In this document: positions 1,422 to 49,835 of the stretch, one piece after another
Numbering within the stretch: the stretch's first letter is position 1
Layout: every line of letters begins with the position of its first letter
From: a virus
Taxonomy: Duplodnaviria; Heunggongvirae; Uroviricota; Caudoviricetes
Reading direction: 5' to 3' (one strand)
DNA length: 51,169 bases
IMG/VR virus record: IMGVR_UViG_2526164628_000012
Notes under the pieces: model-generated
Database searches by the model: none
What the model was told of the DNA's origin: nothing
What the model saw: only the letters and a program-made list of their open reading frames with translations
Position numbers and translations under genes: made by a program

Positions 1422-3893
1422 TTAAAAATCAGCCTGATTCGGGATCAGTTTTTGCCAGATAACTGAAACGTATTTTGCCTGGTAACGGGCGTCATCAAGT
1501 GCATTATGGCGCTCACCTTCGAATGGAATAGCCGTTCTGGCATCGAAGTCTATGGCTTTCCCCAGCTCAACGATTGTGCGTACATCGCGATCGTTGTAGT
1601 AACGCCACGGGCAGGGGATCCCCTGCCGTTCGTATGAACGGCGCAAAATCGTGTTGTCGAAGTTGGCTCCATTTCCCCAGACCTGAACAAAAAATTCACC
1701 GGAGTTTTCGTCGATAAATTCCCGCAATTGTAACAGTGCATCATCTAACGGGATTTCATCGGTCATAATGGCAGACTGCGCTTCACGTGATTGCTTCAGC
1801 CACCTTTTAATGACGTCACGATCAATGACTCCGCCAGCAGTTTCCAGATCGATAGTCTTACTAAATTCCGGTCCCATATCTCCGGTTTGCGGATCGAAAA
1901 ATATTGCACCTATTGAGATAATCGGGGCATCAGGATTTTTTCCCATGGTTTCAAGGTCGATCATTAGATGGTCACACGTCCTGCTGGTGGATGTGATAAC
2001 GTGATGACCGTTCATCGCAATTAAGGGATCTGCCGTCTCGCCAGTTTCACTATCGCTGGCGTGATCCTGAGCGCTACCAGCATTCTCCTTGTGTGGATGT
2101 TCAGCGCCTTCGATTTCCTTCGGATCATTTTCCTGAACTTCAACCTGATTCTCTTCATCGAATGTTTCCTGGTATGTTGCGTCACCCATCACCGCGCCAC
2201 AATCAGGGCAGTTGCCGCCACCGCTTTGACCGCAGGCGGTGCAGACTTTTTCCGGTTCCTGTTGCGCTACTGGCTCAGGTTGTTTCGTTTCTGGCTCGTT
2301 TTGTTGCGTATTTGGGCTGTTTTGTTCCGCTTTCTGGTCGTTCTGTTCCGATTCTTGCTGGTTCTGGTTTACAGAATCGCGGGTTTCAATCCCCTTTACC
2401 CATTTCGGATCATTCGGGTCGCTAATCCCTGCAACAAATTCTCCGCGAGAGGCAGCAAGCAACTTATCGGCGTCAGGCTGGCTGATATTGGCTGCCTGCA
2501 TAATTTTGTTTACTTCGTCAGCGGTAACTTTTACCGGCTCTGGTTGTGCGGTCGTGTCAGATGCACCAGTATTTTGTTGTGAACCTGAGTACGTGCCGTT
2601 TTTACGTGCGAAGTATTCCTCTTTTGTGATTTCCGTAGCTCCCAGGGCTAGTGCTTTTTCCAGACCAGAAAGTTTGTTTGCGCGACCGTATTTTTCGCCA
2701 TCCTTGTCGGTGAAGAGGAAGTAGAACGGCCCCTCACGCTCTACAGATGGTTCGACTTCCACTTTGCATTCGGTTTTTTCGTTGCCCGGAATTGCCGTTT
2801 CCACTGCATCAGTTTCTGGTACTGGCGACGAGAGAGTATCAGTTGCGCTCTGATTTCTTCCTTCATCTTCAAACACGCCCTTTGTAGTCAGGTATTCAGT
2901 AATGTATTTGTTCAGTGCCACAGGGTCTTTGTGAATGTCGATCGGACGTTCACGGACAAGGCCAAAAATAGTCTGGCGGTCGTAGCGAAGGGCATCAGGC
3001 TGTTTGCGCATTGATGCCGAGATACGCTTCCAGTCTTCGCGGTCGTTGTCGATAACTTCATTTTTTGCCCAGCGATGGATGCTGCCGTCAATGTTTCCGG
3101 CATCCACATCACCAGGCCAGAGAGCGTAGGCCAGTTCGTCATCCAGTGTTTTCCATGTCTGCTTGTATTCGCGATGAATGGCAGCAATGACCGGGCTGAT
3201 TTTTCCTGTTGAATTTTCACTGTGCTGTTGATTGGTTCTGGCGCGGGCGAGATCAACAACAGACGTGTATTTTCCGGTTTCCTTGCGTTCACCTTCGCGA
3301 CGTTTTTTCCAGATGCGCATCTCTGCCTGAATTTCGGGCCATTTGGCACCAGGCTTACATTTATGCTTAACCCACCCGATGGCATGCAGCTTAAGCTCCG
3401 GATACATGGCGTTAACTTCTGGCATTTTCATCAACGCTTCAACGATATGTCCGTCGAATGTTGCCATGTCTTCCTGCAACAATTCCTGTGCGCTAATAAC
3501 CATATCAACGGTGATGTTTTCACATGTGTCGAACTTAACCATGACAGCGTTCTGTACTTCAGGGGCCAGCTTGTCAAAAGTGACGTTCATCGGATCGGAT
3601 TCAGTCTCAACCGGGACAAAGGAAGCAGACTCCTCATCCCAGCGGTTTTCCTGCATATATTCAGCATCCCAGGAATCGAGGGCAGGGCGGGGTATACCGG
3701 GTTTATCCTCGCAGACAAGAAATTTATAAGCGCAGTCCTGAGCAGCCGGATAATGTTCCAGGAATTGCCAGTGAAATTTTGCGCGGGCGCGACGTTCATC
3801 ACCGGCTTCAATGGCAGTGGCTACAGCGACGGCACCTTCTTCCTTTATTGCCTGTTCGTCCGGAATGGCGGCGCAAATAAAGACTTTACTCAT
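1422..3893 (-). CDS. Exodeoxyribonuclease VIII-like protein, 823 aa, C-terminal DnaQ/DEDDh-type exonuclease domain
   Basis: Long ORF; C-terminal region (MIDLETMG...HNALDDARY) looks like a DEDD 3'-5' exonuclease; central Gln-rich low-complexity stretch and CxxC...CxxC motif; position between xis and dicB as in Qin/Rac-type prophages. Confidence 0.7.
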   Translation of the reverse strand: MSKVFICAAIPDEQAIKEEGAVAVATAIEAGDERRARAKFHWQFLEHYPAAQDCAYKFLVCEDKPGIPRPALDSWDAEYMQENRWDEESASFVPVETESDPMNVTFDKLAPEVQNAVMVKFDTCENITVDMVISAQELLQEDMATFDGHIVEALMKMPEVNAMYPELKLHAIGWVKHKCKPGAKWPEIQAEMRIWKKRREGERKETGKYTSVVDLARARTNQQHSENSTGKISPVIAAIHREYKQTWKTLDDELAYALWPGDVDAGNIDGSIHRWAKNEVIDNDREDWKRISASMRKQPDALRYDRQTIFGLVRERPIDIHKDPVALNKYITEYLTTKGVFEDEGRNQSATDTLSSPVPETDAVETAIPGNEKTECKVEVEPSVEREGPFYFLFTDKDGEKYGRANKLSGLEKALALGATEITKEEYFARKNGTYSGSQQNTGASDTTAQPEPVKVTADEVNKIMQAANISQPDADKLLAASRGEFVAGISDPNDPKWVKGIETRDSVNQNQQESEQNDQKAEQNSPNTQQNEPETKQPEPVAQQEPEKVCTACGQSGGGNCPDCGAVMGDATYQETFDEENQVEVQENDPKEIEGAEHPHKENAGSAQDHASDSETGETADPLIAMNGHHVITSTSRTCDHLMIDLETMGKNPDAPIISIGAIFFDPQTGDMGPEFSKTIDLETAGGVIDRDVIKRWLKQSREAQSAIMTDEIPLDDALLQLREFIDENSGEFFVQVWGNGANFDNTILRRSYERQGIPCPWRYYNDRDVRTIVELGKAIDFDARTAIPFEGERHNALDDARYQAKYVSVIWQKLIPNQADF

Positions 3894-3985: not shown

Positions 3986-4177
3986 TTAAAGACCTGCCGG
4001 GATTTCGTTATTATCCTGGTGAATAACTTTATCGACCGGGTAACAGTTACCGGGAATTTTCTGTTCGGTTGCTGCAGTCACACACTCCTGCATTGTCCTG
4101 TGAACACTGACTGCAATATCAACTGGCTCTCCGGAAACAAGAAAAACTGTCAGAACAAGTGCAAATGCTGTATTCAT
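3986..4177 (-). CDS. ydfD: YdfD-like small membrane (lysis) protein, 63 aa
   Basis: ATG overlaps dicB stop (ATGA); N-terminal hydrophobic segment MNTAFALVLTVFLVSG; matches recalled Qin YdfD size and sequence. Confidence 0.55.
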   Translation of the reverse strand: MNTAFALVLTVFLVSGEPVDIAVSVHRTMQECVTAATEQKIPGNCYPVDKVIHQDNNEIPAGL

Positions 4178-4362
4178 TGCCAGCATCCTTTTTGTATCGG
4201 ACGTAAACGGGCCAGCATTGAAAGAATGCATATTTTATTTAATAGCTCCCGTTCGTGTTTTCTCTTGTTAATGGCATCTTCAGTAAATACAGGGTTACTG
4301 ATAGTGACACCAATTTCAAAACAACCTTCAGACGTATTAACGTTTGGTAATAACGTTTCCAT
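4174..4362 (-). CDS. dicB: Cell-division inhibitor DicB, 62 aa
   Basis: Internal Met of the 97-aa track ORF gives METLLPNVNTSEGCFEIGVTISNPVFTEDAINKRK..., near-identical to recalled DicB; immediately downstream of DicF. Confidence 0.85.
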   Translation of the reverse strand: METLLPNVNTSEGCFEIGVTISNPVFTEDAINKRKHERELLNKICILSMLARLRPIQKGCWQ

Positions 4363-4536
4363 TATCGCGTCCTCAACAATGAATTTTGTGATGCGGTGCC
4401 TGGTGCCTCCAGGTGACGTTAACCAGTTAACAATTAACGCCGGATACAGAGAATCCACCCATAACACTGTTTTTGGTTTTAACTGTTCCGCGTGCGCTCA
4501 GCCGCATTCACCACATCACAAAATTCACTTTAAAAA

Positions 4537-4589
4537 GGGCGGCAGAGCAGTCACGGAGTAAAACTGATACCGCCAAACGTCACCAGAAA
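4537..4589 (-). ncRNA. dicF: DicF small regulatory RNA (ftsZ-targeting)
   Basis: Reverse complement reads TTTCTGGTGACGTTTGGCGGTATCAGTTTTACTCCGTGACTGCTCTGCCGCCC followed by a T-run, matching recalled DicF; located directly upstream of dicB. Confidence 0.85.
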
Positions 4590-4921
4590 ATTGATAACAG
4601 AGGGCGTTGCAGCGGGGTTGTCACTTAAGCGTATGGTCAACCTGACAACCCGGTGTCCTCAACGGGGGAAGGAATAACCCCGCCATACTTACCGCCGCAC
4701 CATTTCGCGGATTGCCACAACCGGAAGCGCACGGTCGAACTAAATTTAACGACACCGTACAGAGAGACCAATTTCGCCGTGCGCTTTCGCGTTATGCCCT
4801 GACTTTTCAGGGACATATCCTTTCAGTAAACTGTCAGTGCCGGATGTTCACCCGTGTCCGGCGCACGCACTCCACCTGACCCGTGGAGAACTCCTTAATT
4901 ACCAACCCTCAGGAGGGTGAA

Positions 4922-5200
4922 ATGGATAAAAAGCAAATTGAGGCCCTGCAATCTATTATTGAAAAACAAGATGAAGCTATCAGGATTCTTTCATATCGCA
5001 CTGATATGATACTAAATATGCTTTCTGCATTAACGGCTGCGCTTGGTGGTACAAAAACAAACGTATACCGCGAAGTTGTTATTCAACAGATAGATAAATT
5101 TGAAAAAACCATACCAGGTATTAATGCTCATCTTGCAGAACAAGAGAAAGACCATGCTCTTATGGCAATTTCTTCAGTAGCTCTCCCGAAAGTTGAGTAG
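4922..5200 (+). CDS. Hypothetical protein, 92 aa, AT-rich gene convergent with the dicB operon
   Basis: ATG at 4922 preceded by AGGAGGGTGAA; about 37% GC versus about 55% in flanking DNA; 3' end overlaps the convergent minus-strand ORF by about 40 bp. Confidence 0.45.
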   Translation: MDKKQIEALQSIIEKQDEAIRILSYRTDMILNMLSALTAALGGTKTNVYREVVIQQIDKFEKTIPGINAHLAEQEKDHALMAISSVALPKVE

Positions 5201-5573
5201 TTTTAATTGTTGTTTTGAAATAATCACTGCTTTCACATTTGAGTGATTTCATGGCAATCCAAATGCGGGCCTCTGTGCCTGCATTTGGTTCCAGTTGCTG
5301 TAGACGTTTTGCGTCTTCCAAAAGTAAGGCGATAATGTGTTTCAGCTTCTCATCATTTGCTTGATTCTTGTTTTCAGGCGAATTCTGTCCGCCGAATAGG
5401 CGCTTCTCTTCATACAGACCTATAAAGGCACGACGCACGTTACCGGATATAGTATCGATGGTTTCTTTTTCTACGGTACTCAGGTCAAGAGTCGCCAGTT
5501 GAGAGCGAACCACATTCGATGCCATTTCCTGGAATGGTACTGGTAAATCTTTAAATTCCATCGTCAACCTCAT
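5160..5573 (-). CDS. Hypothetical protein, 133-137 aa
   Basis: Start ATG overlaps ydfA-like stop (TGATG coupling); alternative start 5561 with GAGG RBS; no recognisable motifs. Confidence 0.5.
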   Translation of the reverse strand: MRLTMEFKDLPVPFQEMASNVVRSQLATLDLSTVEKETIDTISGNVRRAFIGLYEEKRLFGGQNSPENKNQANDEKLKHIIALLLEDAKRLQQLEPNAGTEARIWIAMKSLKCESSDYFKTTIKTTQLSGELLKKLP

Positions 5574-5725
5574 CAGTCAGTGTTTCTGGTTAACCAGCGA
5601 CGCGCGCCAGCTTCAGTTTTAAACGTTTTGCTTCTGGTATACGTCATCGCGGTAAACGTGCCGTCCTGGTTGGGGAACACGCCACATACCAGAGATTCGT
5701 TGTTGCCAAGATTGAGCATATCCAT
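5573..5725 (-). CDS. ydfA: YdfA-like small protein, 50 aa
   Basis: Hand translation of minus strand: MDMLNLGNNESLVCGVFPNQDGTFTAMTYTRSKTFKTEAGARRWLTRNTD; GAGG RBS 5 nt upstream; not in supplied ORF track (below 60 aa); resembles recalled Qin YdfA. Confidence 0.5.
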   Translation of the reverse strand: MDMLNLGNNESLVCGVFPNQDGTFTAMTYTRSKTFKTEAGARRWLTRNTD

Positions 5726-5797: not shown

Positions 5798-7369
5798 TTA
5801 CTGAGAGCTCAGATCAACTTTCCAGGGCAACAGATCGCGTACCCGGTTTGCCGGCCAGTCCTGGATATGTTCAATGACGTAGCGCAGCCACTTTTCTGGC
5901 TCCACATTGTTCAGACGGCATGTGCCGATCAGCGAGTACAACACCGCCGCATGTTCACCACCGCTGTCGGAACCCGCGAACATCCAGTTTTTCCGGCCTA
6001 CGGCCACTCCCCGTAAGGCGTTCTCTGCGATGTTGTTGTCGATTTCCACCCAGCCATTACTGCAGTACACGTTCAGTGCATCCCACTGTTTCAGCAGGTA
6101 TGCGAACGCTTTTGCCGTATCTGAGTGACGCGACAGTGTTTTCATCTGTTGCTGTATCCAGTCATACAGTGACTGCATCAGTGGCGCGGCTCTGGTTTTT
6201 CTTGCCGCCAGACGCTGTTCTGCTGAACAGCCCCGGACCTCTGCCTCGATGGCATACAGTTCACCGATACGCTGCAGGGCTTCCGTGGTGATGTCGGTGG
6301 GCGCTCTTGCATGCACATCGTGGATTTTTCTCCGGGCATGAGCCATACACGCGGCTTCCGTTATTCTGCCGGATTCGTATAACGCCCGGTAACCACCGTA
6401 AGCATCGGCCTGAAGCACACCGCTGTAACCGGCCAGGTGATTTTGTGGATGGATACCTTTCCGGTCCGGACTGTACGCGAACCAGACCGCCGGGGGCATC
6501 TGTGAACCGGCGTTACGGTCATCACGGACGTAGACCCACAGCCGGGCTGTCCGGGTTTTACCGCTGCCCGGCTCCTGGACCGGGACGGGGATATCATCAG
6601 CATGGACTTTACCGGGCATCAGCACATACTGGCGCAGGACGTCATACAGCGGCTCCAGTAGTTCAGCAACGGCACCTGTCCAGCGCCCCAGTGTGGCACG
6701 GCTCAGCTCCACACCCTGACGGCGGTATATCTCTGACTGGCGGTATAACGGCAGATGGTCTGCATATTTTCCGGTGACGACATGGGCCAGGAGCCCCGCT
6801 CCGGCATAACTGCGTGCAATGGGTTTTGAAGGTACTGGTGCCTGCACGATATGGTCGCACCGACAACAGGCCAGTTTCGGACGTTGTGTTTCGATAACCT
6901 TAAAGGCGCTGCTGATAAGCTCCAGTTGCTCTGACACATCACATCCCAGAGAACTGAGTTCACCACCACAGGCAGGACAGCATTCCTCTTCCGGCCGGAT
7001 AACCCGGGTTTCACGGGGAAGTGAGGCCGGTAACGGTTTACGGGCTGAAGACTGGCGCAGGGCGGATGGCAGTACCGGGTCATATTGCTCACCCAGCGTT
7101 TCCGCCATTTCTTCCTGAAGTGCGCTGATTCGCTCCTGTGCTTCCTGTATCTGCCGTTCGGTTTTTGCACGAAGTTTTTCTGAGCTTTTACCGAACTGCA
7201 TACGTTGCAGTTTCGCAACCAGCGCCTTCAGCCGGTTGATTTCGGAAGCATAAGCCGCCACCCGCTGTGAGAGCAGGCGGTTGTATTCAGCCATCTGGCG
7301 TATGGTGTCCTGTTGCGTCTGCAACAGTGCCCGCAGGCGGGCGTTCTCATGAGCAAGTGAGGTGTCCAT
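5798..7369 (-). CDS. IS66-family transposase (orf3/TnpC), 523 aa
   Basis: Characteristic IS66 transposase length and arrangement; identical protein in second copy. Confidence 0.85.
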
Positions 7370-7388
7370 ATCCTCACTTTACAACGGG

Positions 7389-7736
7389 TTATATGCGGAT
7401 TCCAGCGCGTTCCGTTCGTTTCGGGTGCTTCCAGTTGATACCTTCAAGAAGCATGGATAACTGAGCCGGAGTAAGGTGCACCTTGCCGTCACGGGTGACT
7501 GGCCAGACGAAGCGGCCCCGCTCCAGGCGTTTGGTGAAGAGGCACAGTCCGTCACTGTCAGCCCACAACACTTTTATCTGGTCACCCCGGCGTCCGCGGA
7601 AGATGAACAGGTGTCCGGAGAACGGGTCATCCTTCAGGACGTTCTGAACTTTTGATGCCAGGCCGTTAAAGCCATTTCGCATATCGGTGATACCTGCAAC
7701 CAGCCAGATACGCGAACCTGCAGGGAGAGATATCAT
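7389..7736 (-). CDS. IS66-family Orf2 (TnpB), 115 aa
   Basis: Middle ORF of IS66 three-gene arrangement. Confidence 0.8.
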   Translation of the reverse strand: MISLPAGSRIWLVAGITDMRNGFNGLASKVQNVLKDDPFSGHLFIFRGRRGDQIKVLWADSDGLCLFTKRLERGRFVWPVTRDGKVHLTPAQLSMLLEGINWKHPKRTERAGIRI

Positions 7737-8413
7737 CAGTGGCTGCTCCCTTTTATTTCGCGGATAAGTGTCTGTAATAACGCCGGCGTCAGTTTACCTT
7801 TAAGCCTGAGAGTTCCGGCCGGCAGAACCAGCTCACAACACAGACTGTCGGACGGTGTATTTATCTGCTCTGGTTCCTGTGCGGGGGCCGGGATTTTATT
7901 ATCCGGCTCCGGCGTTAACGTCACGGGAAGCAGTGCCGGCATATTTTTTCCGGAAGGCAGCAGGCCACCTTTCCGGTATTGATGGCGCCAGTTGAAGAGC
8001 AGGTTATCGTTGATTCCGTTTTCCCGGGCGATCTGCGCCACACAGGCTCCGGGCTGCAGTGACTGCTCCACTAAGGCGATTTTAAACTCATAAGGGAAGT
8101 TGGGCCGCCGGGGACGTTTTTTTACCACGGGGGCTTCGGATATAACGGTGCTTTCAGGACGTACGACTGGTACCGTGGAAAATTGTCCGTAAAGGCAGGC
8201 ATCAAGTTCCTGCTCCGACATGCCTGCGGGCAAAGGCCACGAAAGGCCAGCTCTCCGAAAGCGCACGAACATACTACAAACTGTTGATTTTGGTACACCC
8301 AGGCGACGCCCGGCCACAACCCGGGGTAAATGTTCTTCAAAGTGAAGACGTAAAGCTTCAGTGATCCAGGTCCGGTGTTTCATACGATAGTGTCCATTAA
8401 AAATGATGGACAT
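7736..8413 (-). CDS. IS66-family Orf1 (TnpA), 225 aa
   Basis: First ORF of IS66 arrangement; overlaps orf2 start. Confidence 0.8.
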   Translation of the reverse strand: MSIIFNGHYRMKHRTWITEALRLHFEEHLPRVVAGRRLGVPKSTVCSMFVRFRRAGLSWPLPAGMSEQELDACLYGQFSTVPVVRPESTVISEAPVVKKRPRRPNFPYEFKIALVEQSLQPGACVAQIARENGINDNLLFNWRHQYRKGGLLPSGKNMPALLPVTLTPEPDNKIPAPAQEPEQINTPSDSLCCELVLPAGTLRLKGKLTPALLQTLIREIKGSSH

Positions 8414-14046: not shown

Positions 14047-14257
14047 AAACGGTTTGCGGGAAAAGGAGAGTTAAGTAGAATTGCAGCGGGTGCTTGAGGC
14101 TATCTGTCTCAGGCATGAACACCAAAAGGCAGATAGAGAAAAGCCCCAGTTAACATTACGCGTCCGGCAAGACGCTTAACATTAATCTGAGGCCATATCT
14201 ATGCTCTACACACGTAGGTTAGCCTCTTACGTGCCGAAAGGCAAGGAGAAGCAGGCT

Positions 14258-14413
14258 ATGAAGCAGCAAAAGGCGATGCTAATCGCCCTGATCGTCATCT
14301 GTTTAACCGTCATTGTGACGGCACTGGTAACGAGGAAAGACCTCTGCGAGGTACGAATCCGAACCGGCCAGACGGAGGTCGCTGTCTTCACAGCTTACGA
14401 ACCTGAGGAGTAA
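14258..14413 (+). CDS. hok: Hok/Gef-family type I toxin, 51 aa
   Basis: MKQQKAMLIALIVICLTVIVTALVTRKDLCEVRIRTGQTEVAVFTAYEPEE matches the Hok family (HokD/RelF-like); terminator follows. Confidence 0.8.
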   Translation: MKQQKAMLIALIVICLTVIVTALVTRKDLCEVRIRTGQTEVAVFTAYEPEE

Positions 14414-18131: not shown

Positions 18132-18458
18132 ATGACTAAAAATACTCGTTTTTCCCCCGAAGTCCGTCAGAGGGCGATTCGTATGGTTCTGGAAAGTCAG
18201 GGCGAATATGACTCACAGTGGGCGGCAATTTGTTCCATTGCCCCAAAGATTGACTGTACACCGGAGACTCTGCGTGTCTGGGTACGCCAGCATGAGCGGG
18301 ATACCGGAGGCGGTGATGGCGGGCTCACCACCGCTGAACGTCAGCGTCTGAAAGAGCTGGAACGTGAAAATCGTGAACTGCGCCGCAGTAACGATATCCT
18401 TCGCCAGGCTTCCGCTTATTTTGCGAAGGCGGAGTTCGACCGCCTCTGGAAAAAGTGA
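18132..18458 (+). CDS. IS3-family transposase OrfA, 108 aa
   Basis: HTH/leucine-zipper OrfA typical of IS3 family; recalled as IS629 OrfA. Confidence 0.8.
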
Positions 18459-19345
18459 TGCCACTGCTGGATAAGCTGCGTAAGCTGTACGGGGTCGGAC
18501 CGGTATGCAGTGAACTACATATTGCCCCGTCAACGTATTACCACTGTCAGCAACAGCGACATCATCCTGATAAACGCAGTGCCCGTGCGCAGCGCGATGA
18601 CTGGCTGAAGAAAGAGATACTGCGCGTATACGATGGGAATCATCAGGTATACGGTGTGCGTAAAGTCTGGCGTCAGTTGTTACGGGAAGGAATCAGGGTA
18701 GCCAGATGTACAGTGGCGCGCCTCATGGCGGTTATGGGACTTGCCGGTGTTCTCCGGGGTAAAAAGGTCCGCACTACCGTCAGCCGGAAAGCCGTTGCCG
18801 CAGGCGACCGCGTAAACCGTCAGTTTGTGGCAGAACGTCCTGACCAGTTGTGGGTGGCTGATTTTACTTACGTCAGCACATGGCAGGGGGTCGTCTATGT
18901 GGCGTTCATCATTGATGTGTTTGCCGGATACATCGTGGGGTGGCGGGTCTCATCGTCTATGGAAACGACATTCGTGCTGGATGCTCTGGAGCAGGCGTTA
19001 TGGGCCCGTCGACCGTCCGGCACAGTCCATCACAGTGATAAAGGTTCTCAGTATGTATCGCTGGCCTACACACAGCGGCTTAAGGAAGCCGGATTACTGG
19101 CATCAACAGGAAGTACTGGTGACTCGTATGACAACGCGATGGCGGAGAGCATCAATGGCCTTTACAAAGCGGAGGTAATACACCGTAAGAGCTGGAAAAA
19201 CCGGACAGAAGTGGAACTGGCCACACTCACGTGGGTGGACTGGTATAACAATCGACGATTGCTGGAAAGGCTGGGCCATATCCCACCGGCAGAAGCAGAA
19301 AAAGCTTATTATGCTTCCATCGGAAACGATGATCTGGCAGCCTGA
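18455..19345 (+). CDS. IS3-family transposase OrfB (DDE), 296 aa
   Basis: DDE integrase-like catalytic ORF overlapping orfA. Confidence 0.8.
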
Positions 19346-19903: not shown

Positions 19904-19979
19904 GGCCCTTTAGCTCAGTGGTGAGAGCGAGCGACTCATAATCGCCAGGTCGCTGGTTCAAATCCAGCAAGGGCCACCA
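19904..19979 (+). tRNA. tRNA with CAU anticodon (Ile2/Met-type, ileZ-like)
   Basis: Cloverleaf folded by hand: acceptor GGCCCTT/AAGGGCC, anticodon loop CTCATAA, CCA end. Confidence 0.8.
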
Positions 19980-19986
19980 TCACATA

Positions 19987-20063
19987 CCGCCATTAGCTCA
20001 TCAGGATAGAGCGCCAGCCTTCGAAGCTGGTTGCGCGGGGTTCGAGTCCTCGATGGCGGTCCA
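19987..20063 (+). tRNA. tRNA-Arg (anticodon UCG)
   Basis: Acceptor CCGCCAT/ATGGCGG, anticodon stem CCAGC/GCTGG with loop CTTCGAA, TTCGAGT T-loop, CCA end. Confidence 0.75.
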
Positions 20064-20076
20064 TTATCTGTACCCT

Positions 20077-20153
20077 GCGTTGTTAGCTCAGCCGGACAGA
20101 GCAATTGCCTTCTAAGCAATCGGTCACTGGTTCGAATCCAGTACAACGCGCCA
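20077..20153 (+). tRNA. tRNA-Arg (anticodon UCU)
   Basis: Acceptor GCGTTGT/ACAACGC, anticodon loop CTTCTAA, TTCGAAT T-loop, CCA end. Confidence 0.8.
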
Positions 20154-49251: not shown

Positions 49252-49835
49252 TGGCATTCAGAATGAGTGAACAAGCACGGACCATAAAAATTTATAATCT
49301 GCTGGCCGGAACTAATGAATTTATTGGTGAAGGTGACGCATATATTCCGCCTCATACAGGTCTGCCAGCAAACAGTACCGATATTGCACCACCAGATATT
49401 CCTGCTGGCTTTGTGGCTGTTTTCAACAGTGATGAGGCATCGTGGCATCTCGTTGAAGACCATCGGGGTAAAACGGTTTATGACGTAGCGTCAGGGGACG
49501 AGTTATTTATTTCTGAACTCGGTCCGTTACCGGAAAATGTTACCTGGTTATCGCCGGAAGGGGAGTTTCAGAAGTGGAACGGCACAGCCTGGGTGAAGGA
49601 TACGGAAGCAGAAAAACTGTTCCGGATCCGGGAGGCGGAAGAAACAAAAAACAACCTGATGCAGGTAGCCAGTGAGCATATTGCGCCGCTTCAGGATGCT
49701 GCAGATCTGGAAATTGCAACGGAGGAAGAAACCTCATTGCTGGAAGCCTGGAAAAAGTATCGGGTGTTGCTGAACCGTGTTGATACATCAACTGCACCTG
49801 ATATTGAGTGGCCTACGAACCCTGTCAGGGAGTAA
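49251..49835 (+). CDS. tfa: Tail fibre assembly protein (Tfa), 194 aa
   Basis: Immediately follows stf with ATGA-type overlap; lambda Tfa-like. Confidence 0.85.

Follow-up and report, generated by a model that had tools for sequence, protein, structure and literature searches.

A probable moron cargo gene, reverse-oriented in the sieB slot of a dicB-type prophage operon, and its independent mosaic neighbour

In Escherichia coli K-12, DicF, a small RNA (sRNA), and the protein DicB of the Qin prophage originate from one polycistronic ydfABC-dicF-dicB transcript that starts upstream of ydfA and is processed by RNases III and E (PMC10448788, PMC5069750). The dicBF operon is toxic and controlled in layers (PMC10448788). 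The K-12 Rac prophage carries, in this order, racR, ydaG, ydaF (a DUF1391 gene), sieB on the opposite strand and overlapping ydaF by 4 bp, the sRNA gene kilS, and kilR; the sieB gene of lambda is likewise reverse-oriented and abuts N. Morons expressed in the lysogen typically run against the early operon (PMC7067206), and the region next to the repressor is a hotspot for defence and lysogen-benefit genes (PMC8585504, PMC7067206). We report here the analysis of a plus-strand gene of 92 amino acids (aa) that converges on a minus-strand gene of 133 aa inside a dicB-type early-left operon. Both lie in a 51,169-nucleotide stretch of DNA from a virus of the Caudoviricetes (IMG/VR record IMGVR_UViG_2526164628_000012), hereafter the window.

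We propose, with moderate confidence, that these are two independent genes of a recombination-defined variable block and not a functional pair, the 92-aa gene being the cargo of a reverse-oriented moron cassette placed in the sieB slot of the operon. A first-pass annotation, made from the letters alone, had suggested that they could be an acquired AT-rich two-gene module, perhaps toxin-antitoxin (TA)-like or a defence/anti-defence couple with an antisense interaction at the 3' ends. Its description of the layout largely stands. The 92-aa open reading frame (ORF) has a strong ribosome-binding site (AGGAGG at 4911-4916, 5 nt before the ATG) and runs against the minus-strand gene with an overlap of 41 bp, estimated earlier at about 40. 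Both lie within a dicB operon, the ydfA-like DUF1391 gene, DicF and dicB all being on the minus strand (Table 1).

The block is delimited by comparison with K-12 Qin. There, ydfA and everything from about 4908 leftwards (DicF leader, DicF and dicB) are nearly identical to the window, and between these same flanks K-12 has ydfB and ydfC where the window has the 133-aa and 92-aa genes. This comparison supports the view of an acquired, swappable block, and to that extent the idea of an acquired module was sound; a dedicated pair is not supported, since each gene occurs without the other. Homology to YdfB or YdfC was rejected for either protein (best BLASTP E-value 2.6), so that these are not the ordinary ydfB/ydfC-type genes that had been considered as a simpler account. 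A YdfB-like gene precedes a gene related to the C-terminal part of the 133-aa gene (its C-module, see below) in locus L012 and in phiES15. In agreement with what is expected of a moron, the 92-aa gene varies by presence and absence between similar prophages (K-12 versus the window, with alternative cargoes behind the same leader), and its base composition is unlike that of its flanks (36.9% GC, as against 55.9% for 4600-4880; whole window 52.8%). The earlier figure of about 37% GC was thus accurate for the plus-strand gene, whereas the 133-aa gene has 42.3% GC (45.7% in its N-module) and is AT-rich only in its tail, where it runs into the cargo.

The 92-aa ORF is a genuine gene, more than a chance reading frame. 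Measured against its Salmonella homologues (93 aa, 71-73% identity), the ratio of nonsynonymous to synonymous substitution rates (dN/dS) is 0.08-0.25 in its own frame. Four of the remaining frames give values of 0.8 or more, the exception being reverse-complement frame 1 with 0.19-0.47. The length of the family stays at 90-93 aa down to about 40% identity. We counted 22 clusters at 90% identity among 5.8 billion proteins and, by exhaustive profile search, 12 representatives among 1.84 billion. The gene itself is carried by 125 of 5426 complete E. coli genomes, and the earlier worry that the plus-strand ORF might be unconserved in relatives is removed; what is not conserved is the pairing, which is many-to-many. 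Remote members of the family (about 40% identity) are found in immunity regions, converging on early or repressor genes: one lies in a P2-like prophage after cox and a 214-aa helix-turn-helix (HTH) gene, two directly after cI-type repressors and one beside an integrase. A 105-aa version in Salmonella (L010, 5001-5318) has its C-terminus replaced after residue 73; it adjoins a repressor near a ParE/Phd pair, has no forward partner, and is probably a recombinant or decaying copy.

The cassette is recognised by what precedes the ORF, namely a predicted sigma-70 promoter and an 83-nt leader with three predicted helices, H1, H2 and H3, the last of which pairs an anti-Shine-Dalgarno sequence with the Shine-Dalgarno sequence (SD). 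With a pattern based on H1 (GCCGGAU...GUCCGGC, 4839-4862), we located the leader in E. coli, Shigella, E. albertii, two Edwardsiella species and Pluralibacter; at least 120 IMG/VR contigs also contain it. The pattern fixed H1, so that H1 variation was excluded by design. The window contains one copy of the leader and 100 shuffles contained none. Behind it, in prophages of E. coli, Salmonella, Edwardsiella and Pluralibacter, stand at least ten mutually unrelated small ORFs of 57-104 aa, all at the same spacing from GGAG. When compared by hhalign, the sole cargo group related to the 92-aa family was a 91-aa group, MSTEN (probability 96.5%). In at least eight different upstream contexts, those of the main E. 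coli type, L007, L012, L016, L023, L024, L031 and L081, H1 is preceded at 4-9 nt by a TAnnnT hexamer.

Conservation of the fold was assessed by RNAalifold, which recovered H1 and H3. The H3 pair 59-81 changes from AU to UA (15:11 sequences), and the observed H3 pairing was matched by no column shuffle and no slid register. H2 was missed because a one-base bulge distinguishes its stem variants and shifts them out of register. Taken sequence by sequence, each of the 19 unique variants can form H2, with at least five different stem sequences and a mean z of -2.9; compensatory changes preserve it. Three of these variants have a C.A on the plus strand that is a G.U on the minus strand.

Several other copies of the cassette, and a related cargo gene in phiES15, were seen. 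The K-12 Qin copy (L003, about 3045-3175; NC_000913.3, about 1,649,045-1,649,175, minus strand) keeps the -10 element TAAACT, H1 and H2, has the first pair of H1 broken (TCCGGA) and carries no ORF; its promoter, if active, would yield an RNA antisense to ydfC, with a predicted start near 1,649,130 on the minus strand. Cassettes of the Edwardsiella type (L024, 5085-5662, and L023 and L033, with the leader on the plus strand) encode a proline-rich ORF of 30-32 aa followed by a 156-aa protein, which contains a hydrophobic segment (Kyte-Doolittle 19-residue score, KD19, of 1.83) and matches nothing in Pfam or PADLOC; it could be a membrane exclusion protein. In phiES15 (L005), an unannotated 95-aa ORF at 2735-3022 on the minus strand converges on gene 010. 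Its homologues include an annotated gene of Aeromonas phage pAEv1818 and a 94-aa cargo that follows the leader in IMG/VR contigs.

The slot of the 92-aa gene is the one taken by sieB in Rac and lambda. Rac sieB is preceded by AAATGCGCCTTCGTGTTGTGCC and a hairpin, in a sequence that hardly differs from the one upstream of the Salmonella 93-aa gene and is recognisable in the window at 4780-4812. In L024 the lambda hairpin with GGTGGT is found again, nearly letter for letter, immediately ahead of the leader. In the upstream alignment the motif TGCGCTTTCGCGTTATG was seen before Rac sieB and in Salmonella L007, L012, L014, L016, phiES15 and L024. The correspondence continues downstream, Rac kilS-kilR (L034, 1906-2170) mirroring Qin dicF-dicB (window 4480-4600), and the sequence shared just 3' of the sRNA terminator (AAAGTGAATTTTGTGATG(C/T)GGTGAATGCGGCT..) shows the Rac and Qin early-left backbones to be homologous around different sRNAs. 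Homology of the 92-aa protein to SieB itself was rejected: it has no Pfam match, no BLASTP match to Rac or lambda SieB at E<=10 and no membrane segment.

As for the product, a small soluble protein, all-helical with three helices, is predicted. The AlphaFold2 model (mean predicted local distance difference test, pLDDT, 69.7) has helices at residues 3-41, 46-63 and 69-85, and the maximum KD19 of 0.93 argues against a membrane segment. Foldseek searches of this model against PDB and BFVD returned nothing at E<=0.001, a negative that is weak because the pLDDT is only 69.7; the top PDB matches were to the generic three-helix ribosomal protein bS20 (E 0.23). Pfam, NCBIfam and PADLOC gave no family for the 92-aa or the 133-aa protein (best NCBIfam match RelB-like, 15.9 bits for a cut-off of 50; PADLOC matches only at E 0.02 or weaker), PHROGs gave only families of unknown function, and five alternative cargoes were likewise without an informative family match. 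A literature search by the two accessions, WP_000358771.1 and WP_001339605.1, found no paper.

Most likely, judging from these sequences, the plus-strand gene is a lysogen-expressed accessory cargo that would be silenced by early-left transcription passing through it. The cargo mRNA would start at the 5' hairpin H1 from its own sigma-70-type promoter (-10 TAAACT, 4827-4832), and the 83-nt leader, with H3 pairing the SD, would permit a modest and possibly regulated translation in the lysogen. Once the repressor is lifted, early-left transcription would cross the whole cassette in the antisense direction to make DicF and DicB. As the early-left transcript must cross the cassette in this way, both transcription units would oppose each other, by convergent transcription and by RNA pairing over the whole gene, beyond the 41 bp of the overlap, and cargo expression would cease during lytic development. 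The reading frame of the 133-aa gene simply goes on into the 3' end of the cargo up to the first stop, giving the 41-bp overlap. Judging by its position, the cargo protein would most likely serve the lysogen, for instance by excluding or aborting other phages through binding of a phage or host protein. A lysogen-benefit function of this kind (exclusion or abortive infection) is our best guess, by analogy with the position, the orientation and the sieB precedent; a defence-type role, raised earlier for the pair, is possible for the plus-strand gene, position being what speaks for it.

On the other hand, some observations weigh against this proposal. The candidate promoter agrees with the consensus at 8 of 12 positions, one short of the 9/12 threshold of our scan, and a consensus promoter/terminator scan returned nothing relevant on the plus strand, including no terminator-like site after 5200. 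Most of the IMG/VR copies of the leader are close E. coli relatives, and the pattern by which they were found kept H1 constant. A cargo ORF is absent from 78 of the 147 leader copies; K-12 Qin, in which the leader faces ydfC in antisense, is of this ORF-less type. In 15 of the 19 variants it is the minus strand that gives the more stable H2, which hints that the hairpins (4839-4888) also matter in the ydfA-dicF precursor RNA; together with the ORF-less copies, this means that the hairpins may be, in whole or in part, elements of the early-left transcript. Among the forward genes, the C-terminal half differs with the cargo type, as a cognate pair would also predict. Lastly, the likeness to sieB is one of position and says nothing on biochemistry; the protein has neither a membrane segment nor similarity to SieB.

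Part of these observations would fit a different role, in which the promoter and hairpins mainly produce an antisense RNA, or convergent transcription, that silences the toxic early-left operon (dicF and dicB here, kil in Rac) in the lysogen, the ORFs being passengers. The ORF-less copies, K-12 Qin among them, retain promoter, H1 and H2 and face ydfC in antisense, and transcripts that meet no terminator after the cargo gene may reach across the 133-aa gene and ydfA; the toxicity and layered control of dicBF (PMC10448788) also speak for this role. We nevertheless consider such a role rather unlikely, because the 92-aa ORF is under purifying selection, strong SDs stand at a fixed spacing before all cargo ORFs, and the covariation of the anti-SD/SD helix points to a translated cargo.

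The other gene of the locus has to be considered before the question of a cognate pair. We find the 133-aa gene to be, by its sequence, an ordinary mosaic early-left phage gene. PHROG matches split the protein (residues 1-62 versus 69-117), and so do tblastn matches. In the alignment of the forward genes (A5), the N-module (MEFKDLP...RRAFIGLYEEK) continues in some genes into the C-module (KLKHIIALLLEDAKRLQQLEPNAGTEARIWIA) and in others into a different middle module, and short tails follow that differ with the downstream cargo. In the comparison with Salmonella, dN/dS is 0.09-0.16 for the C-module and about 1.2-1.3 for the tail (last 30 codons or so). The AlphaFold2 model has a mean pLDDT of 62.6, with about 80 for the N-module, and below 50 for the linker (residues 56-69) and for residues 123-133; the tail is predicted to be disordered. 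The earlier description had merged two alternative starts. The TGATG coupling to ydfA does exist at the ydfA stop, for a 137-aa reading (ATG 5573), whereas the 133-aa reading used by the Prokaryotic Genome Annotation Pipeline (PGAP) starts at ATG 5561, 9 nt after the ydfA stop and with its own GAGG; this start also agrees with the conserved MEFKDLP of homologues that no ydfA precedes.

A cognate pair of the SieB/Esc type, or a defence gene with its self-immunity gene, would require that the 92-aa protein of the lysogen block lytic growth and that the early 133-aa protein, through its C-terminal part, neutralise it on the prophage's own induction. Immunity regions offer precedents (BstA/aba, PMC8585504; P22 sieB/esc), the 41-bp overlap is retained between E. 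coli and Salmonella, and in most cases the C-terminal part of the forward gene varies with the cargo type (77 aa with 135 aa, 64 with 116, 73 with 124-128, 69 with 212-216 and 80 with 186). The partners, however, are not fixed. Members of the 92-aa family stand opposite the 133-aa gene, a 71-aa gene consisting of the C-module only or an unrelated 214-aa HTH gene, and others, beside cI-type repressors or an integrase, have no overlapping partner. Conversely, the identical 133-aa gene, with the same tail, is also found with a 57-aa cargo 80 bp away or with the pseudogene of that cargo, and its C-module pairs with three cargo families, among them the 94/95-aa cargo of phiES15 and pAEv1818. Partners of the M2 type differ with the cargo in the short tail only, as physical linkage predicts, and the tail is neutral. 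We therefore hold a cognate pair to be unlikely.

With such many-to-many pairing, the overlap looks incidental and an obligate TA-like pair is not supported. The overlap of 41 bp recurs in Salmonella with the 71-aa partner and in the P2-like prophage with the unrelated 214-aa partner, and is best read as the distance to the first stop in the antisense frame. The C-terminal motif SVALPk.E of the cargo is retained even where no gene overlaps it, so that the tail of the partner is best explained by a frame that reads on into the cargo gene at its 3' end. Since this tail evolves neutrally (dN/dS about 1.2), a selected antisense interaction at the 3' ends, as first suggested, is unlikely. The TA-like reading did not hold up either. 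A type II module is not supported, because the genes converge and are not co-directional or co-transcribed, because no TA domain or family was matched and because the genes do not travel together. Nor is a type I toxin with its antisense RNA supported, the 92-aa protein not being small and hydrophobic and Rfam giving for 4400-5700 only DicF and a sub-threshold match.

One could also imagine that the cargo is an anti-defence or host-takeover protein, made from a constitutive promoter at once upon infection and before the early-left operon fires. The cargoes are small, diverse and fast-swapping and lie next to the early region, and in lambda the restriction alleviation gene ral adjoins sieB. We regard this as very unlikely, in view of the orientation opposite to the early operon that typifies lysogen-expressed morons and of the lack of a match to known anti-defence families. 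That the plus-strand ORF would be a chance or mis-annotated frame, as its AT-richness, its place antisense to a known polycistronic transcript, its lack of family annotation and the absence of any tblastn match in 50,697 phage records might suggest, is practically untenable and already contradicted by its conservation pattern, with low dN/dS, a strong SD and length-conserved homologues in four genomic architectures.

Table 1. Positions in the window of the two genes, of the elements around them and of their neighbours
Feature	Position	Strand	Remarks
92-aa cargo gene	4922-5200	plus	WP_000358771.1, phrog_18692; PGAP hypothetical protein
Upstream motif TGCGCTTTCGCGTTATG and hairpin CCCTGA-CTTT-TCAGGG	4780-4812 (hairpin 4797-4812)	plus	homologous to region upstream of Rac sieB; hairpin also to that upstream of lambda sieB
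Predicted sigma-70 promoter	4804-4832	plus	-35 TTTTCA 4804-4809, 17-nt spacer, -10 TAAACT 4827-4832; predicted start about 4839
83-nt leader (predicted helices)	4839-4921	plus	H1 4839-4845/4856-4862; H2 4870-4875/4883-4888; H3 anti-SD CTCCT 4891-4895 with SD 4911-4915
3' overlap of both ORFs	5160-5200	both	41 bp
133-aa gene	5160-5561	minus	WP_001339605.1; PGAP hypothetical protein
N-module of 133-aa gene	5403-5561 (residues 1-53)	minus	followed by linker
C-module of 133-aa gene	5253-5351 (residues 71-103)	minus	
Tail of 133-aa gene	5163-5252 (residues 104-133)	minus	
ydfA-like DUF1391 gene	5573-5725	minus	Pfam PF07151, 1.4e-28; first gene of early-left operon, homologue of Rac ydaF
GC-rich untranslated stretch with DicF leader	4589-4908 (leader 4589-4838)	minus	common to K-12 Qin, nearly identical across the leader
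DicF sRNA	4537-4588	minus	Rfam RF00039, 76.7 bits
dicB	4174-4362	minus	Pfam PF05358, 1.7e-37; PGAP
IS66-family element (ISCro1-like tnpA, tnpB, transposase)	5798-8413	minus	

The window matches a lambdoid prophage integrated at ompW (100% in enterotoxigenic E. coli TW10590 and 99.4% in enteropathogenic E. coli E2348/69). A ydfD-like gene and an exonuclease gene lie alongside dicB on the minus strand. The insertion of the IS66-family element, some 73 bp upstream of the ydfA-like gene, parts the early-left operon from the repressor/promoter region; E2348/69 has the same prophage without this element. In E2348/69 (NC_011601.1) the ATG of the cargo is at 1,432,395 and its predicted transcription start at about 1,432,312, on the plus strand. 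A coding role for the GC-rich segment 4600-4880 was rejected, a 59-aa minus-strand ORF being broken by 3-bp and 1-bp indels relative to K-12. In another E. coli strain (L013, 2008-2136), RefSeq places a 42-aa plus-strand ORF (WP_001368000.1) within the GC-rich DicF leader, a call that is probably spurious because the region has frame-breaking indels between strains. A search of Rfam over 4400-5700, at the gathering threshold and then at E<=5, returned no family beyond DicF and a sub-threshold STnc100 match between DicF and dicB (4400-4535, minus strand; 22.6 bits for a gathering threshold of 47, E 0.019). Elsewhere in the window, at 14088-14263, 18413-18529, 19904-20150 and 49594-49792, Rfam matches comprise a sok antitoxin RNA, an IS3-type ALIL frameshift pseudoknot, three consecutive tRNA genes and an IS009 RNA.

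Altogether, the pair itself is not a new system but an orphan accessory gene next to a mosaic early gene, both of them already annotated as hypothetical. The useful result is the context: where lambda and Rac have sieB, other prophages have many different small genes, all of them behind the same predicted promoter and folded leader. The leader is thus a simple sequence handle with which to harvest candidate exclusion, defence and regulatory proteins from prophages of Enterobacterales. A further question is how a reverse-oriented unit interacts with the toxic dicF/dicB (kil) operon transcribed through it. The pattern of one leader with many cargoes, and of apparently empty copies such as that of K-12, is worth following. 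A wider hypothesis, possible but doubtful in our eyes, would be that the sieB slot (of Qin, Rac, cI-type and P2-like prophages) is an unrecognised cassette hotspot, that the promoter and the SD-sequestering leader form a portable platform for at least ten proteins, and that the 92-aa family is a new leader-gated exclusion or abortive-infection factor shut off by convergent early-left transcription.

Parallels can be drawn with several known systems. The likeness to type II TA modules lies in two small adjacent prophage genes, but here these are convergent, have no TA domains and do not obligately co-occur. The likeness to BstA/aba and the defence genes of the cI-N hotspot is one of location, in mosaic DNA beside the immunity repressor, and the 92-aa family has remote members directly after cI-type repressors. 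BstA, by contrast, is large and co-directional with cI, with nothing comparable to a self-immunity element seen here. K-12 Qin has the same backbone, with ydfA, the long DicF leader, DicF, dicB and ydfD nearly identical, and differs by ydfB and ydfC in place of the 133-aa gene and the antisense 92-aa gene, and by a promoter and leader without ORF.

The closest parallel in position is sieB of Rac and lambda, which is also reverse-oriented, converges on or abuts the first early-left gene (ydaF/DUF1391 in Rac, N in lambda) and lies upstream of a kil-type division inhibitor and an sRNA (kilS-kilR there, dicF-dicB here). The products differ, SieB having 162-184 aa as against 92 and Rac SieB a KD19 of 2.19 as against 0.93; no internal Esc-like product or sas-like RNA was seen for the 92-aa gene, and the H1-H2-H3 leader found here is absent from lambda and Rac sieB. 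On the other hand, the 92-aa gene resembles morons such as HK97 gp15 and ST64B STMMW_20121 by its presence or absence between related prophages, its deviant GC content, its own predicted promoter and its orientation antisense to lytic genes. Unlike these single-gene morons, it has no terminator of its own that we could find, and it shares its promoter and leader with many unrelated cargoes, which makes the arrangement more cassette-like.

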